A stretch of 64,000 nucleotides of DNA from Paludibacteraceae bacterium (GCA_045639365.1 JAZUCY010000010.1:20615-84614); one strand, 5' to 3'; shown: positions 5,900 to 53,600, counted from the stretch's first letter. The notes: generated by a model from the letters alone, not told the origin. Numbers and translations are program-made.

Positions 5900-5935
5900 A
5901 TTTGTAAATAGTAAATTGTCAAATAGTACATCACC

Positions 5936-13291: not shown

Positions 13292-13317
13292 TATTTGGCG
13301 GATTTGAATATTTTTTG

Positions 13318-13325
13318 TACCTTTG
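13318..13325 (+). promoter_or_regulatory. -7 promoter box TACCTTTG upstream of the ATPase gene
   Basis: TAnnTTTG match 26 nt upstream of the ATG at 13351. Confidence 0.6.
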
Positions 13326-13350
13326 CAGCCAAATTAAGAATCTTACTTTT

Positions 13351-18600: not shown

Positions 18601-20702
18601 GTGAGAACGATAATATCCTCACCCAATTGAATAGCGCGTTTCACCACACCAACTATCTCCTCTGGAATCTCAATGGTAGTAGTCAGCGTGTGGAGAGTAG
18701 CGTCGGTTATGAGGGTAATGGTCAGGGTGTTGCCATCTACTTGTACTGCCGTCGCAGTGGCTGTGGCTGCTACAGAAGCATCCAAATCGGCTGTGGCTTT
18801 CAGTTCAGCTGCATCCAAACCGCTGGTAATATCCAATACTTTCACACCTGCGACCTTACCGCTTCCGTCAGCGTATGGAGCCACCATCAGGTGCATACCT
18901 CGAATGCTCAAATAGGTTGCACCATTGTATTGAGCAGGCAAAGTAGCAGCATCCATACGACCGAGGACTGTTACATCCTTACCATTAGCAGCGACTTGGA
19001 ACTCCGATGGCACCATCTTACCTGCATCCATGATAAAATGCCCAGTGCCCTTTGGAGAAGCAGACAATTGCAAATCTTCACCCATGGTATAGGTATAGTA
19101 TGTTGCATTTCCGCCACTGATTGTGCTACCTTGGTATATACGGTCTGATTTGATACCGTTGGTTATCGTAAAATAGTTCATACGTACCGAACCATCGGCA
19201 CCGCCCGCTTCGCCATTTACATTATAATGACGTCCTGTCACAAGGATATTACAAGCAGTAGAAGAACCACTCAATGCCATGGTGTAACCCATGTCAGCGC
19301 GATATGAGTTGGCAGCAAATTGCTCAGAAAACCATTCTCTTGCTCCACCTGTCAAATCATCCCAAATATAGAAACGGTTAGTACCTCTCTTATAACCAGT
19401 ATCGACTTGAGCATCTGCATTTTGACAACGAATATAATTACAAGCCACCAACTTGCCATCATCTGTCACAGCAATATCCGAGATTGAGAGGTAGTCGCCA
19501 GCATTGTCTGGATCGCGCGCTAAAACGCCTTCTTGCGAAATGATAGATACCTCACCATTGGTTACTCGGTAGATATGGGGTGTACCGTCTGCCTCGTGCG
19601 TGAGAACAATAATATCCTCACCCACTTGAATAGCGCGTTTTACCACACCTATTATCTCCTCTGGATGATCAGGAGTCGTCGTCAGTGTATGGAGAGTAGC
19701 ATCGGTTACAAGGGTAATGGTCAACATATTGCCATCTGCTTTCACTGCGGTGGCAGCAGCCGTAGCAGCTACAGGAGTCGCCAAGTTGATAGTTTCTTTC
19801 AGTTCAGCAGCATTTAAACCGTTGGTGATATCCAATACTTTCACACCTGCTACATTGCCACTGGCATCAGCGTATGGAGCCACCATCACATGCTTTCCGT
19901 TAACGGTAAGATACGTAGCACCATTGTATTTCTTGCCGAGAGTACCCTCAGCCAATACAGCAGAAGCCGAATATGCATCACCTTTGCCAGCAGGAACAAC
20001 AAACTCGGATGGTTCGCTCAACTCGCCTTCAAGATACCAATTACCTATTGTAGCAGAAGCATTTAGTTGAAAATGCACACCTTGTGATGGCTCTTTATAG
20101 TATGCTGCTGTAGTATGAAGACCAAACGTAAAGTAACTATCACTTTTATACTCTCCACCGACAACTTTGTGCAAATCCATACGAACAGCACGATTGTTGT
20201 TATGCACAGCAGTTACCAAAATTTCTGCATTCTGAGATGTCCCCTTTAGCGCAAAAGTACGTCCTACATCAGCTACATTTGAATTTCCTGTAGTTTGAGT
20301 GGTAAACCACGTAGAAGGATCTCCTGCAATCTCATCCCAAATATAGAATCGGCTGGTACCTCTCTTATAACCAGTTACTAATTGTTCATCACTATACTGA
20401 CAACGAATATAATTACATGCTACCAACTTGCCATCTTCGGTTACCGCAATATCTGAGATTGAGAGATAGTCACCCAGATTGTTAGGGTCGCGGGCTACCA
20501 CACCTATTAGGGAAACGGCAACTGCCTCACCATTGGTTACTCGGTAGATGTGGGGTGTTCCGTCAGCTTCGTGGGTGAGAACGACAACATGTTCACCATA
20601 TTGAATGGCACGTTTTACCACGCCAACAATGGAGGCTGCATAAGTTGCAACGGAGAACAAACTAATTGTAATAGCAACTAATAATAGAGTTAGTTTTTTC
20701 AT
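15642..20702 (-). CDS. giant repeat-containing surface protein (1686 aa)
   Basis: Signal peptide MKKLTLLLVAITISLFSVATYA. It has three ~325-333-aa tandem repeats (GVVKRAIQ.GE..VVLTHEADGTPHIYRVTNG...DYLSISDIAVT.DGKLVACN). It also has one LNPYAYNL Ig-like plus propeller-like module homologous to the triplicated module of the neighbouring gene. The final ~230 aa are shared with that gene and end in KVMKDGQIIIIRGEKQYNIQGQVIE. Confidence 0.85.
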   Translation of the reverse strand: MKKLTLLLVAITISLFSVATYAASIVGVVKRAIQYGEHVVVLTHEADGTPHIYRVTNGEAVAVSLIGVVARDPNNLGDYLSISDIAVTEDGKLVACNYIRCQYSDEQLVTGYKRGTSRFYIWDEIAGDPSTWFTTQTTGNSNVADVGRTFALKGTSQNAEILVTAVHNNNRAVRMDLHKVVGGEYKSDSYFTFGLHTTAAYYKEPSQGVHFQLNASATIGNWYLEGELSEPSEFVVPAGKGDAYSASAVLAEGTLGKKYNGATYLTVNGKHVMVAPYADASGNVAGVKVLDITNGLNAAELKETINLATPVAATAAATAVKADGNMLTITLVTDATLHTLTTTPDHPEEIIGVVKRAIQVGEDIIVLTHEADGTPHIYRVTNGEVSIISQEGVLARDPDNAGDYLSISDIAVTDDGKLVACNYIRCQNADAQVDTGYKRGTNRFYIWDDLTGGAREWFSEQFAANSYRADMGYTMALSGSSTACNILVTGRHYNVNGEAGGADGSVRMNYFTITNGIKSDRIYQGSTISGGNATYYTYTMGEDLQLSASPKGTGHFIMDAGKMVPSEFQVAANGKDVTVLGRMDAATLPAQYNGATYLSIRGMHLMVAPYADGSGKVAGVKVLDITSGLDAAELKATADLDASVAATATATAVQVDGNTLTITLITDATLHTLTTTIEIPEEIVGVVKRAIQLGEDIIVLTHEADGTPHIYRVTNGVATAISQKNVVARDPDNAGDYLSISDIAITDDGKLVACNKVVCQNEDENVDAGYKRGTTRIYKWDDLAGNPTVWFTSQLSSSWFRSIQGHTMAIKGTSTNAYIFITGVTANTTDNGFRYTLFTIKDGAHSASFGAREDNYTTDIIGQNYELNASPFGETNYFVDGNLVEPFEIFIPDLSQSNKDVAEGTKLAAGTLGKTYNGVTYLTVNGKHLMVAPYADVSGKVGGVRVMDITNGLGAAKWLKNGVLTTPVAATAAATAVKADGNTLTVTLITDATLHTFTITLDEAPSATALNPYAYNLSATWDVAAKTFTTHYTLNADAKEVYITLSDGDVEYIRKQSTGITRGAHTYAITLTDGELAQLPSNKALTWNVIAVSDKRTEVAECATNYELLYPTSIDIDNNPANKTFGRILVTESRHSVKHTDGYLSTGYGAGIYAFNPDFTPAANGTDPGYNGGNTFTEKRADNNGADAYAPYRVRISDDGRIFVTSLNTNGDVLWEVNPDNMNTWTKVFTGLTQDEKKDLYNGSTFVAGPNAGFDVRGSGADLQLLMLSANTDTYGFNYQGFRVSEYNLGTATTWNAAPSKAFPHDNTGPGKSYFLAATNAQVQYDKDGGVWYVQNRSETTEKCPGLVHFTAEGVEDYKELRDNTNNAGFRFNSDFTKVVIAGGTNAVLYSVSKDADGKPVLTEEKTISISTVGRSQNDFAWDYANNLYVVGDVNHKLVAYAMPYSGEVTTPGASQHIFRVVEEVIVDENANNTTALTPFEGKEVTAKVVRNFAPNSILTLTLPFDMGATQIQAVFGDATVYEFNSVGEDENGMFYLQFDPTTTIKAGTPYIIELLDDDYDAKDGFTIENVIINTTQNPVTIGAITMQPILDGGGRLTQASEYWLASDKHIYSAGNHPTALLGLRAYFINSTGRPIRARVVCGENEATSTPTVVAPENNVRKVMKDGQIIIIRGEKQYNIQGQVIE
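17700..20635 (-). repeat. three tandem ~975-999-bp coding repeats inside the 1686-aa gene
   Basis: The GVVKRAIQ-coding 24-mers lie at 20601, 19626 and 18627, giving offsets of 975 and 999 bp. The off-frame plus-strand ORFs at 18534 and 19533 mirror each other. Confidence 0.85.
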
Positions 20703-21118: not shown

Positions 21119-24100
21119 TTATTCCATTCGTTGTCCTTGTACATTATACTTTTGCTCGCCGCGAATGATAATGAGTTGACCATTCTTCATCACTTTGCGC
21201 ACATTGTTTTCCGATTGTGCTTCTACCATTGGGATAGAGGTGGCTTCGTTGTCTTGGAATACCACGCGAGCTCGGATTGGCAGTGATGAAGTGGATTCAA
21301 AGTATGCACGCAAACCTACGAGAGCCATATTGTATGTTCCTGCGTTATACAAACCACCTCCTGACAGATAGTACTGATTGTTTTGATCCAATGTGTCACC
21401 TGCATCTAATACAGGAATCATTGATACTCCATCTTCGGTAACAGGAGACCATGACAAATCAATCTCTACACCTTCAATAGTGAAACCATCTTCTGCATCG
21501 TATCCACTTGTAGCGGTAACGAGGATATATGGTTTGCCTGCGGTGATAGAAGTAACAGGAGTGAATTGCAAGTGAACTTCAGTTGCATTATATTTTTCAA
21601 CATTGTAGAATTCGTACACTTTCGCATTGCCGAAGAAAGTACTAATTTGCGAAGCACTCATATCGAATGGCAGAGTAAGAGTCAAAATGCTATTTGGCGC
21701 AAAGTTGCGAACAACATTCGCAGTCACCACATCACCCTCAAATGGAGTAAGAGCGTTCGTGTTGTCTGCATTTTCATCGATGGTCACCTCATACTCTACA
21801 CGGAAGGTATATTGAGAAGCAGCAGGGGTAGTTACTTCGCCGTCGTATGGCAAGCGGTAAGCCGCTGCCCACTCGTTGCTATTACTTACAGCATAGAAGT
21901 TATTCGCATAATCCCATGCAAAGTCATTGATATTGCTACCAAGAGTTGCCAAACTAAATCCAGATTCCCATGTCAATACTGGTTTGCCTGTTCCATCTTT
22001 GCTAACTTTGTAGAAGTTTACAAATGCATTATCTGCAATCGCAACTTTTGTAAAGTCATTATTGAATCGGAAACCAGCATTGCGAGTTAGATTACGTAGC
22101 CATTTAAAGTCTTCTACACCACTTGTGTTGACATGAACCAAACCAGGCTCAGCCTCTGTCGTCGCGCCACGATATTGGATATACCACACACCACCATCCT
22201 TGTCAAACTGCGCATTGGACTGGTTAGTAACAAGCATATAATCAGCACCTGCAACCTCTTTTGTAGGTTCTGTACTCCATGTAGAAGCCGTACCAAGATT
22301 ATATATATGACACTTAAAGTTAGCCACTTGTGCACCTGGTAAGGAAGCCGAAAGCATCAAAAGTTGGAGATTAGCACCTTCTCCGCGCACATCGAAACCA
22401 GCATTGGTACCCGCAACAAACTTACCACTTCCATCTTTCAATGTATAACCATCATTTGTACCTTGGAATACAGTAGTCCAATCATTCAAATCTTCAGTAT
22501 TCACTTCCCAAAGATACTCACCACTACCATCTTGTGCTGTTGCGAAGATACGACCATCATCAGAGATACGAATACGACGAGGAGCAAACATATTAGCTGC
22601 CGTACTGAATGTCCTGTTACCGTTGTATTTACCCGTAATTTCAAATGCTGGGTCGAAAGCAAAAATACCCGCACCGAAACCTTTACTGATATAAGGGTTT
22701 GTACTTGTAGTATTCTTAACGGATTGCATTGCCTCATTCACCAACACCATTCCAAAATTCTTACTTTCTGGGTTATTATCAATATCCACAGAAGATGGGT
22801 GAAACAATTTATGCTTTGTTGCGTACTCCTTAACCTTATCCACAGAAGTGCCATTTACCACCATCTTCCAAGTCAAATCAGTATTCATAGGCAAGCCTTC
22901 GGTTGGAATAGTAATCGAGTGTACGCCCTTAGTCAGGTCTGTACATGGCACTAGTTTAACCTCTGTAGTACCATTCATAATGACTACTTTCGCACTATTA
23001 GCAGGCGCATTGAGTGAATAATTTATCTTCACATTCTTACCACCATCTATCAACTCGGAAGAAAGACCGTATGCAAATGGGTTGAGGTCTGAAGTTGTAG
23101 AAGGCACCCAACCTGCCAATGGTGTAAATTCATATTGTGTAGCACATGGAGTAGTAATTGTTCCGCTGTAAGGGAGAGCGAAAGCAATTATTTTCTCTCC
23201 GGAGTTTCCTACTACATATAAGTTTTCACCAAAGTCCACTGCAAATTCATTCAAGTTTCGACCAATATGATTTGCCGCCACATTCCATTTTGGAGTCAAT
23301 GTGACTTTACCCGCAGCGTCTTTTCCTATAGTATATACTGTAAAGTTACCTACTGTAGAACTTGTACGAGCCTTGCCTTTAAAAAGCATACCATTGTGCA
23401 CTAACACACCGTCACCACCATAAAACTCAGCATTTTCAGAATAGTAGTCTCTATTTCCGTTTTTATCAAAGTGTACTAAGTTTGGTTGATTTGCGTTGCC
23501 CGCACGGCTTGCACCAAACCAATAACCTCCTTCACCATCGTAAATAACTTGGGCGTTAGAATACACATATCCATACTTACCATTAAAGCAAGTTATCGGT
23601 GTTGGTGCTTTGGAATTATCCCATTTAGTATCTTCACCTAAAGCATATTCATCTAAACGGAAGAGACTTTGTGTCTGACCTGTTATTCCTGTTCCACTTG
23701 CAGAATATAATAAGAGTTTCAAATCTTTTCCGCTACCGATGACATCCATACTCACATTCATTCCCGCTAAGAATTGACCATCTGATGTGGTAAAAGCATT
23801 TCCTTTCATTGTAGTACTTGTTTTTTCTTGTCCACGAGCAAGAACTTCCGTCCACGTTTGAAGATCTTTTGAAAGTTCCCAAACAAACTTACCATTCAAA
23901 TCACAAGAAGAAACAAAAATACGACCATCATCGGAAATTTTCACGCGCCATGGTTGGTATCCGTATGATGCCCATTGGCGAGTAAAATCTATCCCACCAT
24001 TATACACTTTTCCGTCAGTTGCAAACTCTGGTGTAAATGCATACAAACCAGCACCTTTACTAGATGATAAATAACCTGACGCAGGAACTGCTTGCATTGC

Positions 24101-25879
24101 CTCTGCAGCAAGAATTCGACCAAAGTACTCTGAATTTGGATTCTTGTCAATTGCCAAACCGTGAGGACAATAGAGTGAATAGTAAGTGGAAACTTGTGTA
24201 GGTACAGATTTGGTAGTACCTTTTACTTCTACACTCCATGATAATTTACGATTGAGTGGAATATTATCACCTGCCACAGAAATGACTTCTGTGTATGAAC
24301 CACGCGTTTTACCGCTGCAAGCAATACGTTTCAACTCCAAATTGCCATCCTTAATAACAATATCAACAGAATTTGCATTCGCATTGAGGGTGTAGTTGAT
24401 AGTTAATACTTTGTTCGTATTATTGAAAGTAGATGTCAAATTATATGCGTATGGGTTAAGTTCCGATGCCTTAGCCATTTGTGCTGCCGAATTAATCGTA
24501 AACTCATACTTAGAAGCGCAGGGGGTGGAAACTGAACCAGAGTAAGGAAGTGCATAAGCAAGAATCTTTTCACCGTTGTTTCCAATTACATATAAATTCT
24601 CAGCAAAGTCAACCGCAAACTCATTATGATTACGTCCTAATCCTGTTGATGCAACTTTCCATTTTTGGGTCAAAGTGGTTTTACCATTTGCATCCTTCCC
24701 TATCGTATAAATACCAAAATTACCATCTGTAGAAGAAGTACGAGCCAATCCTTTAAAAAGTAAACCTTTATGTACCAAAACTCCACCTCCGCCATAGAAA
24801 GTTGTTGTCTCATCTCTAAAACCTTCTGTACCGTCAGCCTTAATATGCACTAAGTTTGGTTGACCAGCATTGCCACCACGACTACCGCCAAACCAATAGC
24901 CACCTTCCCCATCGTAAATAAAATCCACATCTGTGTGCGTTACACCAAATTTACCACCATTGATAATATTCTTTGGAGTTCCTGTAAATGTTGTTGCAGT
25001 GCCAAGTTTGTATTCATCCAAACGATAACCAGATTGGTTGTATGCAATACCCTTATTATTAGTAGAATATAGCAACAGTGTTAAATCATCTCCGCTTCCT
25101 TTTACGTCCATAGCAACATTCAAACCAGCAAAGAAAGCACCATCCTTCTTTATGGTATAATCAGTAGCATCATTCGTTCCATATATAACAGGTGTCCAAG
25201 TGTTTAAGTCTTTAGAAACTTCCCAAACTACCACCCCATTTATATCACAAGAAGAAACAAAAATACGACCATCTTCTGAAATTTTCACCTGATATGGTTG
25301 ATAGCCATTACTTGTTAATTTGCGGGTAAAATCATTTCCACCTGTGTAACGAGTTTTATCTGTTGTAAAATCTGGATTGAACACATAAAGACCAGCACCC
25401 TTTCCTCCAGAAATATACGTTGTAGCAGATTTACTTGCTACTGCATGCATTGATTCGCTAACTAAAATACGGCCAAAGTTTTCTGATTCGGGGTTATTAT
25501 CAATAGCTAACCCATGAGGACAATAAAGGCCATAGGTTTGTGATTCTTGCGTTGGTTTCGTAACTGAAGTACCCGTCACATCTATTCTCCAACTGAGTTT
25601 TTTGCCGAGAGGCATATTAGGATTATCAAGGGCAACGGTTGCAGTGTACGAACCTTTATCTAGACCTTTGTCATTAAGATTAACGGTCTTGATAACCTTG
25701 TCACCATCTAGTAGAACAAAATCCACATTTGTAGCGGTCGCATTGAGTGAATAATTAACCGTCAACGTGGTCTGATCTGGATTAAGACTAGATGTCAATC
25801 CATATGCAAATGGATTCAACGCTGCAAACGACAGCGTGCTGAATAGCATTGCAACTAAAAATAGAGTAAGTTTTTTCAT
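21119..25879 (-). CDS. giant repeat-containing surface protein (1586 aa), paralog of 15642..20702
   Basis: Signal peptide MKKLTLFLVAMLFSTLSFA. It has three ~455-aa modules. Each begins with LNP[FY]AY[GN]L plus an Ig-like segment, followed by DNNPES.NFGRIL...ISDDGRIFVSSCD propeller-like repeats. The module period is about 1.36-1.38 kb. The C-terminal ~230 aa are shared with the 1686-aa gene and end in KVMKNGQLIIIRGEQKYNVQGQRME. Confidence 0.85.
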   Translation of the reverse strand: MKKLTLFLVAMLFSTLSFAALNPFAYGLTSSLNPDQTTLTVNYSLNATATNVDFVLLDGDKVIKTVNLNDKGLDKGSYTATVALDNPNMPLGKKLSWRIDVTGTSVTKPTQESQTYGLYCPHGLAIDNNPESENFGRILVSESMHAVASKSATTYISGGKGAGLYVFNPDFTTDKTRYTGGNDFTRKLTSNGYQPYQVKISEDGRIFVSSCDINGVVVWEVSKDLNTWTPVIYGTNDATDYTIKKDGAFFAGLNVAMDVKGSGDDLTLLLYSTNNKGIAYNQSGYRLDEYKLGTATTFTGTPKNIINGGKFGVTHTDVDFIYDGEGGYWFGGSRGGNAGQPNLVHIKADGTEGFRDETTTFYGGGGVLVHKGLLFKGLARTSSTDGNFGIYTIGKDANGKTTLTQKWKVASTGLGRNHNEFAVDFAENLYVIGNNGEKILAYALPYSGSVSTPCASKYEFTINSAAQMAKASELNPYAYNLTSTFNNTNKVLTINYTLNANANSVDIVIKDGNLELKRIACSGKTRGSYTEVISVAGDNIPLNRKLSWSVEVKGTTKSVPTQVSTYYSLYCPHGLAIDKNPNSEYFGRILAAEAMQAVPASGYLSSSKGAGLYAFTPEFATDGKVYNGGIDFTRQWASYGYQPWRVKISDDGRIFVSSCDLNGKFVWELSKDLQTWTEVLARGQEKTSTTMKGNAFTTSDGQFLAGMNVSMDVIGSGKDLKLLLYSASGTGITGQTQSLFRLDEYALGEDTKWDNSKAPTPITCFNGKYGYVYSNAQVIYDGEGGYWFGASRAGNANQPNLVHFDKNGNRDYYSENAEFYGGDGVLVHNGMLFKGKARTSSTVGNFTVYTIGKDAAGKVTLTPKWNVAANHIGRNLNEFAVDFGENLYVVGNSGEKIIAFALPYSGTITTPCATQYEFTPLAGWVPSTTSDLNPFAYGLSSELIDGGKNVKINYSLNAPANSAKVVIMNGTTEVKLVPCTDLTKGVHSITIPTEGLPMNTDLTWKMVVNGTSVDKVKEYATKHKLFHPSSVDIDNNPESKNFGMVLVNEAMQSVKNTTSTNPYISKGFGAGIFAFDPAFEITGKYNGNRTFSTAANMFAPRRIRISDDGRIFATAQDGSGEYLWEVNTEDLNDWTTVFQGTNDGYTLKDGSGKFVAGTNAGFDVRGEGANLQLLMLSASLPGAQVANFKCHIYNLGTASTWSTEPTKEVAGADYMLVTNQSNAQFDKDGGVWYIQYRGATTEAEPGLVHVNTSGVEDFKWLRNLTRNAGFRFNNDFTKVAIADNAFVNFYKVSKDGTGKPVLTWESGFSLATLGSNINDFAWDYANNFYAVSNSNEWAAAYRLPYDGEVTTPAASQYTFRVEYEVTIDENADNTNALTPFEGDVVTANVVRNFAPNSILTLTLPFDMSASQISTFFGNAKVYEFYNVEKYNATEVHLQFTPVTSITAGKPYILVTATSGYDAEDGFTIEGVEIDLSWSPVTEDGVSMIPVLDAGDTLDQNNQYYLSGGGLYNAGTYNMALVGLRAYFESTSSLPIRARVVFQDNEATSIPMVEAQSENNVRKVMKNGQLIIIRGEQKYNVQGQRME

Positions 25880-29731: not shown

Positions 29732-29763
29732 TATTTTTTCGTTTAAAGTGTAAAGTTTATAGT

Positions 29764-30546
29764 TTAAAGGCTGGAGGTATAGTTTCTGCCATACGAGCGA
29801 TAGGTGTCTTTTTCGATTTCTATTTCAGGTTCTATGAGCGATGGTTCTTTGGGCAGTTGCCATGCTATATACTTGATAGTCAGTCCGCGGTCAAGCCACT
29901 GGTGCTCGTAGTGCGTCTGCAAGGCGCGTGCTTCTTCTGTGGCTGATGCTGGTGTCTGGTATCCGGCATCCGGTATCCGGTTATAAAGATCATCCGTGTC
30001 CACCAATATTTGATACTTATTCTCTTTCACCATTGCCTGTGTGTAGGTATAGAGGAATGGGCTGTCGGTCTTGAGATGGATGATACCATCGGGACGGAGC
30101 AGTTGGCGATAGCGCGCCATGAAATAGGTGGAAGTCAGTCGCTTGGTAGCTTTCTTCATTTGTGGATCGGGGAAGGTAATCCAAATCTCTGCCACCTCAT
30201 CGGGGGCAAAGAAGTGAGAAATCATTTCTATGTTCGTGCGCAGGAATGCCACATTCTTTATGCCTGCCAGTTCGGCTTGTTTAGCACCTGCCCACATGCG
30301 CGCACCCTTGATGTCTATGCCTATATAGTTCTTGTGAGGGTTACGCTCAGCCAGTCCTACGGTGTATTCGCCACGACCACAACCCAGTTCCAATACGATA
30401 GGGTTGTCGTTCTTGAAGTACTCCGCATGCCACTTGCCACGCATAGCCACTACGGGACTCTCTTCCACACACTCGCGCGCTCCACACTGAAACACGTTGT
30501 GGAAAGTCTCCATCTCTGCAAATTTCTTTAGTTTATTCTTTCCCAT
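29764..30546 (-). CDS. trmB: tRNA (guanine(46)-N7)-methyltransferase TrmB
   Basis: 260 aa with the motifs [16 protein letters not shown] and [12 protein letters not shown]. Confidence 0.85.
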
Positions 30547-37178: not shown

Positions 37179-37213
37179 CCATCGCCCATCGCCAATAGCC
37201 AATCACCAATAGC
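37179..37213. repeat. five tandem heptamers CCATCGC CCATCGC CAATAGC CAATCAC CAATAGC, filling nearly the whole spacer between convergent genes
   Basis: Read directly. The array starts right after the TAA at 37176-37178 and ends 1 nt before the RNB gene stop codon (37215-37217). Confidence 0.9.
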
Positions 37214-37214
37214 C

Positions 37215-45171: not shown

Positions 45172-46704
45172 TTAATATATGTTGTCACTGTCGGCAATTT
45201 TTGTTTTGGCTAACTGCTTCCTTTCGGCGTTAATATCTTCACTATCACGCTCATATACTATCCAGCCGCGTCGTGCAGGAGTTCCTTTCCTCTTGGCAAT
45301 AAATCCTTGCCGATGGAGTATGGCACCCAATTGATTCAGGCGCATGGGGCATTTTATATTGCCACGGCTTACTAATTTCTCACTTATTTCTGCTGTGGTT
45401 AGGAATTTGGCATTTGTGCTACCTTCTGCTGGTACGGCAAAATATACCATCAGCAACTGCTCTTCGTTGCTCTCATCGCGGAAATGCTGATTGTGTTCTT
45501 CCAGTACCTCTATCTCGTCCAACTCAAACCAGTAGCTGAAGATTGGATCCTGTGCCAGTGCCCATGCCTGCGCATACATCAGATCATAGGGTAGAGTCGT
45601 GAAGAATGGGTTTTGTATGCTCTCCACCTCAAACGGTAACCAGCGACGATTGCCTGTGATGTCGGTCAGGAAGTCGCGACGGTTACCGCTTGCGCAGAAA
45701 CTGGCAAGGCGTACCCTGCGTTCTTTGCTGTAGGCGTATGGAGCGCGTTCGTTGACGTCGCTGCTGGTTATCAGTGATTTTAGTTGGTTCAGTTCGCGAC
45801 TATGGAGAGCATCTATTTCGTCCATGTTTATCAGTCCGAACTCTGCGATGCGTAGGCGTTCATCTTTGTTCAAGTCGCTTATATTGCTCATTTTGCAGCA
45901 GTACGAACGCAGTTCGGGTGGGATGAGGTGTTCCAACCAGGTAGTCTTGTAGATGCCTTGTTTGCCTATCAATACCAATACTTGGTGATTCACCACCTCA
46001 TCCCTCATCCAGCTCGCCACCATCGCCACAAACCACTTCTTGAAGCACCTGCGCCAGAGGGCATCAGCGGGATTGTTTTGTGGGGACAAGGGTGTTGATT
46101 TTTCTGAAGACAACATAGACAACTCTTCCGCTTCGCCGTACGCAACGCGATCGTTCGAACGAAGTGAGATAAGAACATTGCTCAGCGGCGAGGATAATAT
46201 AGCATCCTTGGCAAGCGCCAATGTTGGGCGCGGCGGGGTCCCCGAAAAATCTGCTGATTTTTGGGGTGCACTGCAGAGGTTGTTTAAGTTGTCTTTATTA
46301 ATCCCACACTCCGTTTTGTCGTTCCCTTTCACGTGAACCTGCCTCGCCACCATGTCTATCCAGTCGGGTTGGTCGGGGGTGTAGGGCTTGAGCGAGAGGA
46401 TATACTCGCGCAGGGGGTGCACATCGGGGATAAGGTCCGATTGTAGTGCGGTGATGACTTCTCGGTAGCTGATATTGGCGTCATACTCTTGCGCGCATTG
46501 ACACACGATGCTGTTTATATCTTGCCGTGTCATTTCCCGCCATAATTCTTGCCTCTCGCCTCTTGCCTCTCGCCTCTCGCCTTTATCACTTAAGCTATGC
46601 GCGCGCTGCACTTGCAGTTTATCGCTGACCACATCGTGCCGTATTCGCCCGAAGTCCAAATAATTCTCTCGAATATATCGTATTACAATTGCCTGTTTAT
46701 TCAT
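45172..46704 (-). CDS. VirE/VapE (virulence-associated protein E)-like P-loop protein with an N-terminal BT4734-like region
   Basis: 510 aa. It has FKKWFVAMVASWM, the P-loop-like LVLIGKQGIYKTTW, INMDEID and NRRWLPFEV. Two low-complexity stretches appear to be inserted relative to my memory of the family. Confidence 0.7.
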   Translation of the reverse strand: MNKQAIVIRYIRENYLDFGRIRHDVVSDKLQVQRAHSLSDKGERREARGERQELWREMTRQDINSIVCQCAQEYDANISYREVITALQSDLIPDVHPLREYILSLKPYTPDQPDWIDMVARQVHVKGNDKTECGINKDNLNNLCSAPQKSADFSGTPPRPTLALAKDAILSSPLSNVLISLRSNDRVAYGEAEELSMLSSEKSTPLSPQNNPADALWRRCFKKWFVAMVASWMRDEVVNHQVLVLIGKQGIYKTTWLEHLIPPELRSYCCKMSNISDLNKDERLRIAEFGLINMDEIDALHSRELNQLKSLITSSDVNERAPYAYSKERRVRLASFCASGNRRDFLTDITGNRRWLPFEVESIQNPFFTTLPYDLMYAQAWALAQDPIFSYWFELDEIEVLEEHNQHFRDESNEEQLLMVYFAVPAEGSTNAKFLTTAEISEKLVSRGNIKCPMRLNQLGAILHRQGFIAKRKGTPARRGWIVYERDSEDINAERKQLAKTKIADSDNIY

Positions 46705-46767
46705 ATCCTTGCCTTTAACCTCTAACCTTTAACCTTATCGCCTTTCGCCTTTCGCCTCTAACCTAAT
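46705..46767. repeat. nine tandem degenerate heptamers between the XRE stop and the VirE start
   Basis: The plus strand reads ATCCTTG CCTTTAA CCTCTAA CCTTTAA CCTTATC GCCTTTC GCCTTTC GCCTCTA ACCTAAT. The minus-strand words have the form (A/G)AGG(C/T)NA. The XRE stop codon (46758-46760) lies inside the array. Confidence 0.9.
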
Positions 46768-47078
46768 CCCTCTATCACCTTCTTCAACCGTTTAAACGTA
46801 TCGTAGTGTGGGATAGTCATTTCGATAATGATGTGTTGTTCTGCGGTGCATTGGTATTGTATTTGTGGTTCTGAAACGAGTTCGCTTACGGGTATTTGGA
46901 AGTAGTTAGCGAATAGTTCCAGATGTCGAAAGGTGATGTTTCTTTTACCGCTGATGATTCGGCTTAGGTGTGCGGGGTCGATTATCATTTCTCGACTCAT
47001 TTCTTGCAGGCTAACTTCGTGTTTGTTGATCAGTCGTAGTACATTGGTGCGTACTACTTTTTCCAATGTTTGTTTCAT
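46758..47078 (-). CDS. XRE family helix-turn-helix transcriptional regulator
   Basis: 106 aa. The stretch LQEMSREMIIDPAHLSRIISGKRNITFRHLELFANYF is a typical HTH_3. It is divergent from the kinase-like gene. Confidence 0.75.
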   Translation of the reverse strand: MKQTLEKVVRTNVLRLINKHEVSLQEMSREMIIDPAHLSRIISGKRNITFRHLELFANYFQIPVSELVSEPQIQYQCTAEQHIIIEMTIPHYDTFKRLKKVIEGLG

Positions 47079-47254
47079 TTTTTTGTGTTTATGGGTTAAT
47101 AGTTAATTTTCTGCTTCGGTATGTATTTCCGAACGCGCTGCAAAATTACCTCTTTTCTCTTACATATCTATTGACCCATTGGCACGTATTCTTTGACCTT
47201 TATCTCTTTTGGCACGAACCTCCTTTTTAGCAAGTTCCTGTCATTGGTTATACC

Positions 47255-47397
47255 CACGGCGTGTTCGCCGTGTCTTCCTTTTCCCCTCCCGTTGGTTTTG
47301 TGCTCGCGGCTACCCCCGCGAGTCTTTCTCTGTCCATTTTCCCGAATGACATTCGTGTTCCCTTGCCTTTACACCTTACACGCTACACTTTTACACC
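47255..47397 (+). repeat. structured ~122-bp repeat, copy A, plus a TTACAC heptamer tail
   Basis: The core 47255-47375 has 1 mismatch in ~105 nt against copies B and C. It contains the dyads CACGGCG-N4-CGCCGTG, CTCGCGG-N6-CCGCGAG and CGAATG-A-CATTCG. Confidence 0.9.
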
Positions 47398-47427
47398 AAA
47401 ACATTTGTTCAATCCAAAATAAATTTG

Positions 47428-47435
47428 TACCTTTG
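47428..47435 (+). promoter_or_regulatory. -7 promoter box TACCTTTG for the kinase-like gene
   Basis: TAnnTTTG match 32 nt upstream of the ATG at 47467. Confidence 0.55.
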
Positions 47436-47466
47436 CACCCGTAAAGGTTGAATCACTGAAAAAATA

Positions 47467-48273
47467 ATGAATCATCAAAGTCCAAATAGTACATCCATGA
47501 TTGATTTTGAGTCGATCTATGTCGCTATTCGCGATAATGGTTTTTCAGAGCAAACAATACAACTAATTGATAACTATACTAACAATATACTCAATGGAAA
47601 AACAAACCTTACTCAATTCAATCAAGCGGAGCATGCAGGTCTCTGCTGCGCAGGTGAGATGCTCATTGGGGCGTACATCGTCAGCAGCTACGCGCGAACA
47701 AGCCTTGCAACAAGTGCAAATGCTTCAACAAGCCAAGTTGGCCCAGCAAATTGGCAAATAGATGAACTTCAAGAAAAACTAGTTCAGCAATGGGCAGAAG
47801 CCCGTGGCGTATGGTTTGATAATGCAGAAAAAGAAATCGAAGCTGAATATGGTTCGATGATTGCGCAAGGCGCAGAAGCAAAAGTGTATTATCAGAATGG
47901 AGATACATCTGTAATTAAACTTCGCACCTCTATCTATGCTACACTCGAAAGAGCGTTGGAAGCTATTATTTTGCATAATACGTTGTTTCCAGAAACACCG
48001 ATGAATGTCATCGGATTCACACGCGATACGGATGGATTGTTCCGTACAATCTGCACTCAACCCTATGTGACATGCAAAAGGTTGGCCACCAAGCAGGAAA
48101 TAGATCAGATGGTATCTAAAAAAGGTTTTCGTGATAACTGTGATGGTAAAGGTGTCAATTATATTAGCGAACGTTTGCATTTAGAAGATATGCACCCTGC
48201 TAATGTGTTTATTGACTCTGTGTCAGATATGCCAGTTTGTATTGATTGCATAGTGAAGTTTGTAAGACACTAA
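47467..48273 (+). CDS. hypothetical protein with a C-terminal Bud32/RIO-like minimal protein-kinase fold
   Basis: 268 aa. It has a Gly-rich-loop-like IAQGAEAKVYY, the lysine in SVIKL, a catalytic-loop-like LEDMHPANVFID (D-x4-N) and a metal-binding-like CIDCIV. Assigned by eye. Confidence 0.5.
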   Translation: MNHQSPNSTSMIDFESIYVAIRDNGFSEQTIQLIDNYTNNILNGKTNLTQFNQAEHAGLCCAGEMLIGAYIVSSYARTSLATSANASTSQVGPANWQIDELQEKLVQQWAEARGVWFDNAEKEIEAEYGSMIAQGAEAKVYYQNGDTSVIKLRTSIYATLERALEAIILHNTLFPETPMNVIGFTRDTDGLFRTICTQPYVTCKRLATKQEIDQMVSKKGFRDNCDGKGVNYISERLHLEDMHPANVFIDSVSDMPVCIDCIVKFVRH

Positions 48274-48384
48274 TCATACCGTTGATCACAGACGTAAAAC
48301 AGCAAACTAACTCATAATTCAAAATTAGAAAAATTGCCTATAAATAACCTGAGGCGGTAAAGTCGCACCGAGCAGCGTCCTGTT

Positions 48385-48600
48385 CACGGCGGTGGTCCGC
48401 CGTGTCTTCCTTTTCCCCTCCCGTTGGTTTTGTGCTCGCGGCTACCCCCGCGAGTCTTTCTTTGTCCATTTTCCCGAATGACATTCGTGTTCCCTTGCCT
48501 TTACACCCTACACCTTACACTCTACACTCTCGACTTGGCTGTCTTGTGCACGGCGGTAGTCCGCCGTGTCCCCTTCCCTTTACACTTTACGCCCTACACC
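48385..48600 (+). repeat. structured repeat copy B (48385-48507) plus an internally deleted second copy (48547-48600)
   Basis: It has the same three dyads as copy A. The second partial copy keeps the CACGGCGG-N4-CCGCCGTG hairpin and the CCTTTACAC tail but lacks the central ~75 nt. Confidence 0.9.
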
Positions 48601-48651
48601 CCAAAATCTCCCTAAAATACGATTTTATTTGCACAATCCAAAATATTTCAC

Positions 48652-48659
48652 TACCTTTG
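48652..48659 (+). promoter_or_regulatory. -7 promoter box TACCTTTG for the DUF1016 gene
   Basis: TAnnTTTG match 39 nt upstream of the ATG at 48698. Confidence 0.55.
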
Positions 48660-48697
48660 CAGGCGAATAAGGATATTGTATCTCAAAGCCCCAAGAT

Positions 48698-49798
48698 ATG
48701 GAACAATTCAGTTATCCCAATCTCCTTGCACAAGTGAAGGAGCGTGTGAAGTTAGCTCAGCAACGGGCTATATATGCTGCTAATGATGAGTTACTGCGCA
48801 TGTATTGGGACATTGGGCATATCTTATACGAGGAGAAAAAGAAAATCGGTTGGGGTAATGGTGCGTTGAAACGTTTGTCTGAAGATATGCACAACTACTA
48901 TCCCGAAATCAAGGGCTTTTCTGTGCGTAACTGCCAATGTATGATTCAGTTCTATGAAGAATACAACCAAGAACTGACCCTACCCAAATCGGGGACTCTA
49001 ATTGCGCAACTGCCAGTTGCGCAATTAGGCGAGGCAAAAACGCAACCAGCGGTTGCGCAATTACCAGAGTACAATTTCACACTTCCTATTATACATCTGT
49101 CATGGACGCACAATATCATTCTTATTCAGCGTGTTAAGGATATTCAAGCACGATATTGGTACATGATTCAGTCCATTGCTAATCATTGGTCAAAAGACTT
49201 TCTTATTGATGCTATCAAATTAGACTTCTATAAGAAACATGGTGCATTAGCCAACAATTTCGATATAGTCCTACCGCAACCAGAGGCAGCCGAAGTCAAA
49301 TCCATGCTCAAAGATCCATATGTCTTTGATATGCTTACTTTTACCGAAAGGTTTGACGAGGCAGATATAGAATTGGGACTAGTGAAAGAAATTGAGAAGT
49401 TCTTATTGGAGATGGGTACGGGCTTTGCTTTCATGGGACGACAATACCATTTGGATGTATGTGGCGATGATTATTATATTGACTTATTGATGTATAATAC
49501 TTTTATGCATAGGTATATGGTCATTGAGTTGAAGAACACAGAATTCATGCCAGAGTATATTGGTAAACTCAACTTCTATTGTTCCGCAGTTGATGATATC
49601 TTGTGTCGCGAAGGCGATAACCAAACTATTGGTTTGTTGCTTTGTCGTAGCAAAGATAAGATTAAAGCCGAATATGCGTTGCGTGACATTAACAAACCAA
49701 TAGGTGTTTCTGATTACGAACTCGGCAATGCTCTACCAAAAGACATACGATCTTCTCTACCCTCTATTGAGGATATAGAACGAGATTTAAACGAATAA
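48698..49798 (+). CDS. DUF1016 (YhcG-like) PDDEXK nuclease family protein
   Basis: 366 aa. The N-terminus LLAQVKERVKLAQQRAIYAANDELLRMYWDIGHIL is typical of the family. The C-terminal DLLMYNTFMHRYMVIELK is a D...E.K nuclease core. Confidence 0.75.
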   Translation: MEQFSYPNLLAQVKERVKLAQQRAIYAANDELLRMYWDIGHILYEEKKKIGWGNGALKRLSEDMHNYYPEIKGFSVRNCQCMIQFYEEYNQELTLPKSGTLIAQLPVAQLGEAKTQPAVAQLPEYNFTLPIIHLSWTHNIILIQRVKDIQARYWYMIQSIANHWSKDFLIDAIKLDFYKKHGALANNFDIVLPQPEAAEVKSMLKDPYVFDMLTFTERFDEADIELGLVKEIEKFLLEMGTGFAFMGRQYHLDVCGDDYYIDLLMYNTFMHRYMVIELKNTEFMPEYIGKLNFYCSAVDDILCREGDNQTIGLLLCRSKDKIKAEYALRDINKPIGVSDYELGNALPKDIRSSLPSIEDIERDLNE

Positions 49799-50006
49799 TA
49801 CTAATATCCAATTGCCAAAAGATCCTCCGCGAGAACCATATCCTCATCCTCCGCGAGGGTAGGATGTACACCATCATGGGCGCAGAGGTCAAATAACCCA
49901 CACAAGACAATCACAGCATGACAATAAAAGCGCTCGCAGGATTATTGATTGCGAGCGCAAATTGTCGGTATTGTCGTTGATAACCATTCCCATTGTTTGT
50001 TCTGTG

Positions 50007-50150
50007 CACGGCGATTTTCCGCCGTGTCTTCCTTTTCCCCTCCCGTTGGTTTTGTGCTCGCGGCTACCCCCGCGAGTCTTTCTTTGTCCATTTTCCCGAA
50101 TGACATTCGTGTTCCCTTGCCTTTACACCTTACACTTTGCACCTTATACT
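50007..50150 (+). repeat. structured repeat copy C plus a TTACAC tail
   Basis: The core 50007-50129 is identical to copy B outside the hairpin loop. Confidence 0.9.
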
Positions 50151-50223
50151 AAAAAAACACCCCTAATCCCCTATAATTTTACACTTTTTTTGCATTTTCC
50201 TTGTTGGGTTAAAAAAATAATTG

Positions 50224-50231
50224 TATCTTTG
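50224..50231 (+). promoter_or_regulatory. -7 promoter box TATCTTTG starting a ~310-nt leader or ncRNA upstream of the LRR gene
   Basis: TAnnTTTG match 379 nt upstream of the ATG at 50610. Confidence 0.5.
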
Positions 50232-50502
50232 CAGTCGAATCTCGCTGGAAGGGATATGTCCTCAGCGAAAAGTGTTTCGCATGGTACTTTCTATAGGGTA
50301 GGTTCAGACATATTGATAGCGTTTATTGACGCTTTGTGTTTGATGTACGAAACTTAGCAACTTTCACAAAAACAGTCAAAATCAAAGTAATCAGTAGATG
50401 CCTATGGGTGTGACATTACACCTGCTTTGTCGTATCTCGGCAAGGCGGTTTGTCATATCAGCGTAGGTTTCTTGTTGTTTATTTGACTGTTGGGTAATGC
50501 TA

Positions 50503-50546
50503 AGACCTCGTGCATTAGTAAACAGCATGAGGTCTGCGCTTTTTTG
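50503..50546 (+). terminator. intrinsic terminator or attenuator inside the leader of the 1337-aa LRR gene
   Basis: 11-bp stem AGACCTCGTGC(50503-50513)/GCATGAGGTCT(50525-50535) with 1 G-U pair, followed by GCGCTTTTTTG. It lies 64 nt before the ATG. Confidence 0.6.
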
Positions 50547-50609
50547 TTTACTATGGAAAACAAATCAAAGAATAAATAATAATATTAACAATAAAAAACT
50601 CAAAACATT

Positions 50610-53600
50610 ATGAAACGAGTGTACTTTTTCTTAGCAACCCTTCTTGGTCTGCTATCCGTTCTCCCTATGTCGGGACAAACAATCACAGTCAAAGCTAAAG
50701 TTCCAGCTCATTGGACGAATACTATTACCGCATGGGTCTGGGAAACAGATGGTGATAGTTATGCTGTAACACCAATCAAAGAAGGGGATTGGTATTCATA
50801 CACTCATACTGGCGCAAGTTTTAATATTATTTATCGAAATGGTGAGGATTGGACTGATGCTGCTAATCAAACGGTTGATATTACCAATATCAAAACGAAC
50901 ACTTGTTTTGCTCTTAGTCAAACGGGTGCAGAAAAAGCGGTGTACACTATTGTAGATTGTGAAACAGGTGAGGACATAACCAATACTGATTCTGTTTTTG
51001 CAAATGTGCTTATTTCCCAATCAGATGTGGAATTAACTATTCTTAATGATACTTTATATCCTTGGGTATATGATGCTACCAATGCTTGTATTACTAATAG
51101 CAACAAAGGAATCAAGTACTCTTCTGCAATACTATCTTTGTCTTATAAATCAGATTATGTAACCGAATTTCAAGTAGATTGGTTATCTTATAATTATTCT
51201 GCTCATCAACCTCTACAATTATATATTGATGGTGTATTAACCAAAACAACCAATAGTAGTTCTTATTCTACACCTCGTTATTATTTGCCCGCAGGTGAGC
51301 ATATTATCACTTTCCGTGATTCAATTGGAAATTCTTCATCAACTAACAATTATAGTCGCATATCTAATCTCCGCATCCACGAAATACTTCCTCTTGACAC
51401 CGCTGATTTCGTATCATATTCCGATGTGGATATTACTATTATCAATGATTCAATATACCCGTGGATACATAATGAAGGAACTACATATATTACCAACAGT
51501 AATTGTGGTTTTGCATATACAACATCTACACTATCTTTGTCTTATAAATCAGATTATGCAACCGAATTTCAAGTAGATTGGTATTCTTATAATTATTCTG
51601 CTCATCAACCTCTACAATTATATATTGATGGTGTATTAATACAAACAACTAGTAGTAGTTCTTACTCTACTCTACGTTATTATTTGCCCGCAGGTGAGCA
51701 TATTATCACTTTCCGCGACTCAATAAGTAACTCTTCATCAACTTATAACTATAGTTGTATTAAGAATCTCCGTATTCGCGAAATTCTTCCTTTTGAAGAT
51801 ATTGTCTTAACCGAAAACTCTCAACAACTTACTTTTACGAATGATAGTGTTTTCCCATGGACTATCGAAGATGGATATATCCAAAGTAGTAACTATGGTT
51901 TTACTGATGCAGTTTCTGCATTTTCAACAAGTTTTACAATAGATAAACCATCTATTTTTAGATGGACTAGTGGCTCTATAAAAATGGGTAATAATACCAG
52001 TGGATCGCATTTTTTTATGGTAAGGATAAATAATGAACTTGCTTATGGAAATAAAATATTTTTAGAGCCAGGAACATACGAGGTGGTATTTAAGGATAGT
52101 ATAAAAGGGTTGAGTGATAATGCTACGTATGTGTCTAATATAGAACTTTCATCAAGTTGGATAAATATAGATATGCCATCGGAAGGAATGTTAGGTGTAG
52201 AAGTATTGCAACAAGTAGATATCCTGCAAGATGTAGAATTGCTAAAGGTAAAAGGTAAATTGAATGCAGACGACTTGGCAAAAATCAAGCAAATGACATA
52301 TTTGGTTGGATTAGACTTGTCCGAAGCATCATTCGATGCATTACCTGTCTCCGCTTTTTCTTCCTTACCTTATTTATATGATGTAAAATTACCTGAGGGT
52401 TTGCTTTCAATAGGTGAAAGTGCATTTCTCAATACAAGAATACAACATATTGATATTCCTTCTACTGTCACCTCCATTGGTAAATCGGCATTCTCTCAAA
52501 CTCCTATACAAACTATTACTTTTGCAGAAAATGCGCAACTGCACTCTATAGGTTATCAAGCATTTTATAAATGTAGTCGCTTGAAAGAGTTTATAATGCC
52601 CAATACGGTAAAAAGTTTAGGATATAGTAGTTATCGTAGTGATTGTTTTTATGAGTGCACCGCATTAGAGACATTACATTTTTCAGACTCTATAACATAT
52701 ATACCCGATTATACCTGCTACAAATGTAGTAGTTTGAAAGATTTATCGTTGCCTAAAATGCTAACAGCAATTTGGGATTATGCTTTTTGCAACAATGCAC
52801 AGTTACGACATATCGTTTTCCCAGAAACTACAACATCAATATATCCTTATGCTTTTCAAAATTGTGTATTGGATACCGCCAAATTACCAATTCACTTAAC
52901 TTATTTAGGCGAATATGCATTCTACAATTGTGATAGTCTTAGATATATTGAATTACCTTCACACATTAGTCACTATAATGTGAACTTTTATGATTGCAAT
53001 GGTATCAACACTATAGTGTGTCCAGCCGCAACGCCACCTTTAATTGCATCTAATCCGTTAAGCAATGGAGCTTCAAAATCAAATATTACGTTGTATGTAC
53101 CTTCATTTGCTTTACTTAATTACAAATTAGACAATTATTGGTACGGATTTGGAGAAATTCTTCCGATGGATGAAGACCCTATAGACTGGACTATTGGCAG
53201 TGATATGACACTCTATAATGATAGCCCTATTAAGGTTGAACCCAATGTTAAGCTAACTTTTGGTGAAGACAATAGTGCACAATATAGTGGTAGTCTTACC
53301 GTAAATGGTAATGAAACGCTGTCAATGAGTTCTTTCTATATTCCATGGCCGCATAATAATCAATATGTAAATCCAGATGAAACGAAGATTTATTGTTCAC
53401 TAATTAATAATTCCAATCTTCGAGCTGATAACGTTGAGATTACCATTGCAAATAGAAATGATATTTGGACATTTGTGACTTTCCCTTATGACGTGAAAAT
53501 TTCTGACATCACTTTTACGTATAGTGGAAGCACCAATTATGTAATTCGCAAATACGATGGACAAAAACGAGCAGATGGAGAAACAAACTCCACATGGGTA

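Follow-up and report, generated by a model that had tools for sequence, protein, structure and literature searches.

Several described repeats and gene units resemble parts of the locus reported here. Repetitive extragenic palindromic sequences and bacterial interspersed mosaic elements (REP/BIME), known from Enterobacteria and Pseudomonas, are commonly located 3' of genes, can terminate transcription or stabilise mRNA, and are substrates for recombination. The pneumococcal BOX repeats and the Correia repeat enclosed elements (CREE) of Neisseria affect transcription and termination and reach ~100 or more copies genome-wide, and in phage P4 the crr region consists of two ~120-bp direct repeats that are bound by the primase-helicase. 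Frpo elements of plasmid leading regions form one long hairpin that rebuilds -35 and -10 boxes, and the morons of phages and prophages are units of promoter, gene and terminator that are present or absent in collinear relatives and carry conflict or defence cargo. We analysed a 64,000-nt stretch of DNA from Paludibacteraceae bacterium (GCA_045639365.1, JAZUCY010000010.1:20615-84614; hereafter the window, with positions counted from its first letter), in which a ~122-nt structured repeat, here termed element E, precedes three consecutive transcription units: a kinase gene, a YhcG nuclease gene and an operon of BspA-type leucine-rich repeat (LRR) proteins, downstream of a divergent gene for an XRE-family helix-turn-helix (HTH) regulator. 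We tentatively favour a reading of E, for which we would claim not quite an even chance, as an island-restricted, portable, non-coding mosaic of hairpins that may act as a terminator or insulator and may provide homology for recombination.

Three full copies of E (~122 nt) and an internally deleted one, all in the same orientation, lie within 47255-50150 of the window:

47255-47375, + strand: copy A, in which a short-loop H1 hairpin (loop TGTT) of the XRE-proximal type is joined to a full body.
48385-48507, + strand: copy B, which starts 112 nt past the kinase stop codon and provides the first hairpins downstream of the kinase.
48549-48600, + strand: truncated copy B', comprising H1 and the heptamer tail, with the internal ~88 nt gone and CGTGT microhomology at the edges.
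50007-50129, + strand: copy C, which separates the LRR promoter from the YhcG trailer.

Identity was compared over 111 nt, from the right arm of H1 through CTTTACACC, and the copies differed at no more than 2 of these 111 positions. Copy A departs from B and C by a single substitution in the core (at ~47330 it has C and the other two have T), and B is unlike A and C at the last position only, B and C being otherwise the same. The three sub-motifs of E gave three matches each, versus 0-0.06 expected in shuffled sequence, and an nhmmer profile search of the 64-kb window found no copy besides these four places, all on the + strand, which is 71% pyrimidine in E. Copy B' fits a deletion derivative of full E in which H1 sits directly on the heptamer tail. 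The initial annotation of the window had already described three copies and an internally deleted one (here placed at 48549-48600), a single substitution over ~105 nt (copy A carries one in that core), the position of copy A in the divergent XRE/kinase spacer, three dyads per copy (CACGGCG(G)/(C)CGCCGTG, CTCGCGG/CCGCGAG and CGAATG-A-CATTCG), and a distance of 50-140 nt to downstream TAnnTTTG boxes. All of these were recovered, the distance from the end of E to the next box measuring 52 nt for A, 144 nt for B, 51 nt for B' and 94 nt for C.

Element E is composed of hairpin H1, a pyrimidine-rich linker that has CTCCCGTTGGTTTTGTG as its final block, hairpin H2, the palindrome H3, and a tail of degenerate 7-nt repeats, located in the window as follows:

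48385-48404, 47255-47272, 48549-48568 and 50007-50026, + strand: hairpin H1, CACGGCG(G)-loop-(C)CGCCGTG, with a GC-rich stem of 7-8 bp and a hypervariable loop.
48418-48457, 47286-47325 and 50040-50079, + strand: the 17-nt linker CTCCCGTTGGTTTTGTG, H2 (CTCGCGG-CTACCC-CCGCGAG) and TCT, together the most conserved block of E.
48473-48489, 47341-47357 and 50095-50111, + strand: palindrome H3, CGAATG-A-CATTCG, in its window form CCCGAATGACATTCGTG.
48499-48527, 47367-47396, 48578-48600 and 50121-50150, + strand: tail of degenerate 7-nt repeats of the CTTTACA, CCCTACA and CCTTACA type.

Across loci H1 occurs in 15 versions with 13 distinct loops of 1-6 nt (3-6 nt but for one short variant) and its stems kept, and the H2 loop is 5 or 6 nt. 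Among 14 distinct E sequences, 98.6% of cells were standard-paired, versus 20%-51% with partners slid by 1-3 columns. Two compensatory pairs were detected in H1, one a change from A-U to U-A (three sequences) and the other a series of G-C, G·U (L026) and A-U (L029), the wobble intermediate of which is valid as a pair on the + strand only. No informative covariation was found in H2 or H3, which are invariant across the 14 sequences. The H3 of relatives has perfect symmetry over 17 bp (CCCGAAT-N3-ATTCGGG), with a centre that differs in sequence (GAC, GCT, GTC, GGT) and is always 3 nt long, and a G>T change in one arm gives CCCGAATGACATTCGTG in all three window copies. The shape of a dimeric HTH operator, previously noted for the CGAATG-A-CATTCG palindrome, suits H3, with its constant 3-nt centre, and not H1 or H2, the centres of which vary in length; because their loop lengths vary, H1 and H2 behave as hairpins rather than as operators.

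The 17-nt unpaired linker is identical in 22 copies of E. The heptamer tail, in contrast, is polymorphic, with 3 units in the window versus ~18 in L026 ahead of the same YhcG promoter. RNA and DNA folding of E gave three separate local hairpins and no end-to-end pairing (z-scores: + strand RNA, -3.3; - strand RNA, -2.5; + strand DNA, -5.2). A minus-strand open reading frame (ORF) across E (MSFGKMDKERLAGVAAS...) was considered as a gene and rejected, since insertions or deletions of 1-2 nt in the H1 and H2 loops shift its frame between copies; E is evidently non-coding, because these indels break every reading frame. Rfam 15 had no match in the window at gathering thresholds, and nothing relevant at an E-value ≤ 5 in 46400-50700.

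In a terminator scan, H1 and H2 of every copy ranked top on the + strand (23 sites versus 6.3 expected). Both hairpins have the intrinsic-terminator shape of a GC stem-loop with U-rich tails (TCTTCCTTTT, CTTTCTTTGT), the U-tracts being interrupted by C, and the stretch from the kinase stop codon to copy B holds no other hairpin. Because H1 and H2 rank top, copy B carries the first hairpins past the kinase stop and E also follows 3' trailers, we infer that E acts as a tandem terminator or insulator at the seams between units, with termination on the + strand.

The units at these seams and the genes and promoter-like sites beside them are, in window order:

45172-46704, - strand: VapE-like primase/helicase gene, with translated 7-nt repeats inside the ORF at 46547-46582.
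46712-46757, + strand: 7-nt repeat tract in the XRE-VapE spacer, pyrimidine-rich on the + strand, the same polarity as the tails of E.
46758-47078, - strand: XRE-family HTH gene (106 aa), with a -7 box TAATTTTG at 47141-47148 on the - strand.
47404-47435, + strand: kinase promoter-like site, TTTG-20 nt-TAccTTTG.
47467-48273, + strand: Kinase-PolyVal gene, strain-variable unit 1 (absent from L013-L016, L028 and L029; present in L021).
48628-48659, + strand: YhcG promoter-like site, TTTG-20 nt-TAccTTTG.
48698-49798, + strand: YhcG/DUF1016 PD-(D/E)xK nuclease gene, strain-variable unit 2 (PADLOC PDC-S02 match).
49886-50000, + strand: 3' trailer of YhcG, containing a separate hairpin (GCGCTCGCA/TGCGAGCGC, 49930-49958) and ATTGTCG repeats, which travels with the following E.
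50200-50231, + strand: LRR-leader promoter-like site, CTTG-20 nt-TAtcTTTG.
50232-50609, + strand: conserved LRR leader of ~380 nt, ending in an intrinsic terminator (50504-50546).
50610-54623, + strand: BspA-type LRR protein gene.

The kinase and YhcG -7 boxes have TTTG 20 nt upstream, as in Bacteroidetes promoters, whereas CTTG takes this place before the LRR box. For YhcG there was a match to PDC-S02, a candidate defence family of PADLOC (E-value = 1e-130), and the Kinase-PolyVal domain family has been linked to conflict systems.

Two queries, the XRE protein matched exactly and a spurious ORF of 45 aa within the LRR leader, retrieved ~30 metagenomic contigs of sibling strains, which differ from the window in the following ways (S denotes a short form of E with H1 and heptamers only):

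L013, L028: XRE, S, E, LRR leader.
L014-L016: XRE, a short variant of E without H2, S, E, LRR leader.
L025: XRE beside LRR, kinase and YhcG both missing; one full E, accompanied by short or variant units.
L020, L022: tandem E copies ~155 nt apart, gene-free between.
L021: XRE, S, E, kinase.
L009: another repeat module between two E copies, followed by a different leader under a kinase-type promoter.
L029: XRE, S, E, module, S, E, YhcG, E, module, S, E, LRR leader; four E and no kinase.
L030: LRR leader and operon as in the window, next to the S16 locus; no VapE, XRE or E.

The number of E copies between XRE and the LRR leader ranges from 0 (L030, also without VapE and XRE) to 4 (L029), and the island was found in three chromosomal contexts, at S16 (window), YceG/UvrB (L023) and LepA (L029). 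In L030, homology to the window begins only at the LRR -7 box, the -33/upstream region being unrelated. The YhcG unit (window 48571-50089) recurs at 98% identity in L026/L027, where it lies between variant E copies and before a different 112-aa gene, which in L023 lies at the far island end. An H1 (S) unit of + polarity is present in L023 between XRE and VapE, within a - strand operon. E was also found behind the 3' trailers of YhcG and of the LRR operon, in the latter case 9 kb away and past the operon, and E and XRE co-occur at every locus scorable for both, both being absent from L030. Because strain layouts differ by whole units at E, the kinase and YhcG are taken as strain-variable units and E as the mark of the seams between such units, which carry their own promoters. 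The cassette-boundary alternative of the initial annotation is supported by this comparison, since both genes are present or absent as E-bounded units and the YhcG unit recurs between variant E copies elsewhere.

Breakpoints were not confined to one position of the element. Copy A is a short-loop, XRE-proximal H1 fused to a full body where its siblings L013 and L021 have S and then E, and it looks like the product of a deletion between two H1 hairpins. At the breakpoint of B', ~88 nt were lost between CGTGT microhomologies, L025 has a hybrid H1 stem (CTCGGCG...CGCCGTG), and types of H3 centre and of tail occur in mixed combinations among copies. The YhcG promoter of L029 (oriented 3760-3860) is itself a hybrid, with an upstream half of the kinase-promoter type and a downstream half of the YhcG-promoter type that meet in a shared stretch of ~19 nt, ATTTG..CAATCCAAAATA (compared with window 47367-47440 and 48600-48665), a recombination breakpoint outside E. 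Because the breakpoints are scattered in E and in promoter homology, they point to homology-driven recombination or slippage and not to fixed-site cutting. The rearrangements fit homologous recombination or slippage among repeated modules, together with homogenisation of copies within a genome, and no recombinase domain was detected in any ORF of the 64-kb window, which stops short of the far island end where one might lie, or of the examined flanks.

The distribution of E appears to be narrow. Neither the H2 region nor the invariant 24-mer CTCCCGTTGGTTTTGTGCTCGCGG, each scanned for as an exact pattern, had a match in 185,579 GTDB species-representative genomes or in IMG/VR viral contigs, blastn of E against plasmid and phage collections gave no match, and a scan of JGI metagenomes for E returned chance matches in high-GC contigs only. 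When the spurious minus-strand ORF across E was used as a probe of a 5.8-billion-protein index, just 7 protein clusters were recovered, and the 4 examined by contig (P0001, P0005-P0007) were in this island type or beside YhcG; P0002-P0004, on contigs of ≤2.4 kb, were outside the inspected set. XRE homologues formed just 5 clusters, all at least 84% identical. Within the scope of the 64-kb window and these searches, E therefore reads as a low-copy repeat of a narrow family of VapE/XRE genomic islands and not a genome-wide one. The host of this family is an uncultured gut Bacteroidales lineage, probably Paludibacteraceae-like, as the names of the S16 clusters indicate. A literature search returned nothing relevant on comparable Bacteroidales repeats or heptamer tracts.

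In the reading we favour, E would stand at the seams between self-contained units, each with its own Bacteroidetes-type promoter, gene and 3' trailer, and its pyrimidine-rich strand is always one and the same strand. On the + strand, H1 and H2 (7-8 bp GC stems, then UCUUCCUUUU and UCUUUCUUUG) would act as tandem terminators or insulators, so that E would end the transcript of the upstream unit and shield the next promoter, making each unit moron-like and independent of context. Repetition of E would at the same time supply homology for adding, losing and shuffling units, and the three promoters of the window would share E through assembly by recombination at E, without co-regulation through it. 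Several observations weigh against this reading. The interruption of the U-tracts behind H1 and H2 by C is one. Copy A and the XRE-adjacent S units have no co-oriented gene upstream to terminate. The S unit of L023 keeps its + polarity among the - strand XRE and VapE genes, and heptamer tracts of the same polarity occur inside the VapE ORF; because of these two cases, the polarity of E is taken to follow the island and not local transcription. Gene-free tandem arrays of E (L020, L022, L029) would be redundant as terminators, and a simple terminator does not explain why the linker is invariant in 22 copies. Furthermore, E is 93%-96% identical between lineages in which XRE genes are 87% and spacers 85% identical. 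The invariant linker and this high identity suggest that E is recognised in a sequence-specific manner, or else that lateral spread or gene conversion took place recently. Together, the lack of an upstream gene, the L023 unit, the linker and the identity of E keep alive a signal at the level of DNA or single strands, or lateral spread. As the search for copies covered 64 kb, it is also possible that E occurs elsewhere in the source genome.

Control by the neighbouring regulator, with the XRE repressor binding H3 (possibly also H1 and H2) as a shared operator and co-regulating the kinase, YhcG and LRR units, looks unlikely. H3 would suit such a role, as the half-sites CCGAA/TTCGG of its perfect form in relatives are one helical turn apart and its centre varies in sequence and never in length; promoter-like sites always lie downstream of E, and E and XRE are found together at every scorable locus and are both missing in L030. 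However, of the features that characterise XRE/Cro operators, fixed half-site spacing is seen in H3 only, which is damaged in all three window copies, and not in H1 (spacer of 1-6 nt) or H2 (5-6 nt), a variation that a hairpin loop tolerates and a dimeric HTH operator does not. Neither a fixed place by the promoter nor a site at the regulator's own promoter was found: E copy number is 0-4 for one downstream gene, the distance from E to the promoter is 51-144 nt, the heptamer tail has 3 to ~18 units before the same YhcG promoter, and the XRE promoter region (47079-47254) contains no E-like or H3-like site but does contain a different inverted repeat, TTCGG-N9-CCGAA. In addition, E also lies after 3' trailers and at the LRR operon end, kinase homologues of other species keep a homologous promoter without E, and the LRR -7 box, leader and operon persist in L030 with an unrelated upstream region and neither E nor XRE. 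Co-regulation of the three units by XRE through E is thus probably wrong, and XRE control looks unlikely. We also doubt that E is a selfish or neutral repeat (REP/BIME-like, BOX-like or similar to the Rickettsia palindromic elements, RPE) that spreads by slippage or unequal crossing-over with no role for its neighbours. Its extremely variable copy number, tandem arrays and partial forms would be expected of such a repeat, as would the VapE gene of L018 with an in-frame hairpin and duplicated heptamers, and other tandem repeats precede homologous promoters in other species; yet E is more conserved than adjoining coding DNA, compensatory change maintains its stems, and it is placed regularly at unit seams.

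A site for site-specific recombination (attC- or pdif-like), at which a recombinase would read the folded hairpin and insert or excise circular cassettes, seems quite improbable, although the layout of gene, repeat, gene, repeat with co-oriented repeats, the presence or absence of whole genes bounded by E, and the occurrence of the YhcG unit between E copies at two positions of the island family are all in keeping with it, as are a conserved structure with variable, attC-like loops and the 7-bp arms of H1 around a 6-nt centre, which resemble the core site of a tyrosine recombinase. No recombinase was found in the 64 kb or the examined flanks, the R''/R' core motifs and a single long imperfect hairpin are missing, each cassette brings a promoter of its own, breakpoints lie at scattered places, one of them in promoter homology outside E, and an H1 centre of 1-6 nt is incompatible with strand exchange that needs spacer homology. 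Very unlikely in our view is a single-strand or replication signal, that is, a site of priming, origin or transfer (similar to the single-strand initiation site ssi, the single-strand origin sso or P4 crr, or mimicking the transfer origin oriT) used by a VapE-type primase-helicase on one DNA strand. The island-wide polarity of E regardless of gene direction, the strongest fold z-score being that of DNA (-5.2), the constant company of VapE and XRE, and the invariant 17-nt unpaired block would agree with such a signal, but E and the VapE-proximal repeats have no iteron in common, heptamer sequences differ from tract to tract, copy number is unconstrained, E also lies 9 kb off at the far end of the LRR operon, and there is no relaxase and no sign that the island replicates or transfers. 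More speculatively, and with little expectation that it is correct, E could be what an undescribed system of Bacteroidales islands recognises, one that exchanges cassettes or is active on single strands. The array would then be integron-like or leading-region-like and would capture genes for defence and anti-defence (YhcG/PDC-S02, Kinase-PolyVal) with their own promoters and relocate them by way of a hairpin signal in the folded strand, which a factor of the island or the host would read; the linker with H2, the island-wide polarity and the conservation of E above that of its neighbours would reflect protein recognition and strand-specific function.

If E is indeed a seam-marking terminator and substrate for recombination, the locus would show an uncultured gut or rumen Bacteroidales lineage assembling and reshuffling small accessory genes beside giant BspA-type surface-protein operons, with each accessory gene independently expressed and at least one of them a candidate phage-defence gene. 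The 24-mer CTCCCGTTGGTTTTGTGCTCGCGG is a sequence handle for tracking cassette turnover in metagenomes, and E a compact candidate terminator or insulator part for Bacteroidetes. The same sequence ahead of three promoters need not mean co-regulation, and assembly of the locus appears to explain it better here.

Stand-alone homologues of Kinase-PolyVal are plentiful in Bacteroidales and gave 1,312 matches (P0013-P0132 among them), including Alistipes and Paludibacteraceae, mostly on contigs of 1-2 kb, as expected for repeat-flanked, strain-variable genes. The promoter region of kinase homologues is conserved across species and preceded by differing tandem repeats (7-mers, 11-mers (ACGGTAGATAT) and 21-mers). 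E is missing beside the homologues of other species (L037-L040), although their promoter is homologous, and L037 retains just an H3-like palindrome and TACAC heptamers; E is therefore not obligatory in kinase cassettes. An exact-protein look-up found no proteins identical to the kinase, YhcG or PGK of the window. In the stretch that separates the XRE promoter from copy A, TTGACC..TTGGCACG occurs twice as a direct repeat (47160-47215), and the inverted repeat TTCGG-N9-CCGAA at ~47113-47133 is just downstream of the XRE -7 box; both are better candidates than E for the regulator's own operator. The LRR leader is 83%-100% identical across strains, the E-less strain included, and is structured over ~300 nt. 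RNAalifold on five leader sequences gave 20 pairs with double changes, and there was no Rfam match; the terminator just ahead of the LRR start suggests control by attenuation or antitermination.

Tandem repeats with a period of 7 nt, in many sequences, are the commonest microsatellite here, both in the island and elsewhere (window 46712-46757, 29741-29769, 37181-37214 and 5897-5928; L026 1011-1176, 1755-1796 and 4009-4132). They are often behind a hairpin or just upstream of a start codon, their length is highly polymorphic (5-12 units in the XRE-VapE spacer), and periods of 14 and 21 occur too. The translated repeats in the VapE ORF (46547-46582) keep the frame in every strain with a linker that differs (KGERREARGERQE vs EAMRLEGDKAKGTE), and VapE of L018 has a further in-frame insertion of 66 nt, comprising a GC hairpin (CCCCAAAACG..CGTTTTCGGGG) and a ~22-nt duplication of flanking heptamers. 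A second repeat module consists of CATTGTC-type heptamers, a hairpin (CCGTGGCAC..GTGCCACGG or GCCGCTCGA..TCGAGCGGC), AATAATCGTTCGAG-N-CGAGATAAGAA, and GTTGTC repeats (L009 8260-8490; L026 2330-2470; L029; L038 9640-9890; L041 1418-1447). It recurs between E copies and intergenically around PDDEXK_3 genes of a different bacterium, and its AATAATCGTTCGAG...CGAGATAAGAA sub-module had one exact match in IMG/VR, inside an apparent methyltransferase-like coding region. Elsewhere in the window, a 53-bp tandem repeat (13133-13305; 2.9 copies, 96% identical) overlaps the start of ORF 13252-14793, which encodes a 513-aa AAA ATPase matching the PADLOC candidate defence family PDC-S27 (E-value = 2e-187). 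Two giant paralogous ORFs on the - strand (15642-20702 and 21119-25879; 1,686 and 1,586 aa) have internal repeats of ~1 kb and are 70%-80% identical to one another in blocks offset by 5,477 nt.

Some known systems were considered for E and rejected. The ends of E (GTTCTGTT-CACGGCG... and ...CTTTACACC) are not complementary, its sole inverted repeats being the internal hairpins, and no short duplicated sequence is common to the regions flanking the four copies; with neither terminal inverted repeats nor a target-site duplication, the miniature inverted-repeat transposable element (MITE) that had been offered as another explanation does not apply. A type III toxin-antitoxin locus (ToxI-like) was discarded, as the promoter-like sites are downstream of E and no + strand TAnnTTTG lies upstream of any copy, and ori/crr iterons of the P4 type were discarded because E and the VapE-proximal tracts have no short motif in common.

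Compared with REP/BIME, E is similar in consisting of extragenic GC-rich hairpins in mosaic units of variable make-up. It is unlike them in having no GTAG/CGTC head tetranucleotide by H1, H2 or H3, and in the window there is no REP-associated tyrosine transposase (RAYT) or other Y1 transposase, on which grounds a REP/RAYT system was rejected. E also has one polarity in place of an alternating one, a linker that is long, unpaired and invariant, and microsatellite tails of 7-nt units, and it lacks the high-copy dispersal of REP/BIME, with copies at one locus within the 64 kb and just 7 clusters from the ORF probe. Like BOX and CREE, E is a modular intergenic repeat of ~100-150 nt with stable hairpins and variable modules near promoters; CREE have terminal inverted repeats and a TA duplication, whereas E has neither and is low-copy. 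RPE resemble the insertion in VapE of L018 and the translated heptamers, in that a hairpin repeat is tolerated in frame in a gene, a likeness that is limited to the hairpin-plus-heptamer modules, does not extend to the 122-nt E and involves no sequence relationship.

In type, E is akin to the mosaic hairpin repeats REP/BIME, BOX and CREE, and the units that it brackets are akin to phage morons. With integron attC sites and clusters of attC sites lacking integron-integrases (CALIN), E shares co-oriented structured repeats between small accessory genes, gain and loss of cassettes, and a conserved structure in which loops vary. Its lack of R''/L''-L'/R' architecture, with neither the R'' (RYYYAAC) nor the R' (GTTRRRY) core, its three local hairpins, the absence of intI or another recombinase from the window and examined flanks, the promoters borne on the cassettes and the heterogeneous junctions led us to reject attC. 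Frpo and ssi elements likewise are repeated structured elements ahead of consecutive co-oriented genes of anti-defence type on a mobile element, but in place of the single Frpo hairpin E has three short GC hairpins, the stems of which contain no promoter motif, with ordinary double-stranded promoters downstream. The kinase and YhcG units are like morons in their promoter, subsequent hairpins, presence or absence in collinear relatives and cargo; morons normally lack a shared 122-nt bracketing repeat, and E additionally forms gene-free tandem arrays. From all of these systems E is set apart by its confinement to one island family, its single polarity, its invariant linker-H2 block and its tails of 7-nt microsatellites.

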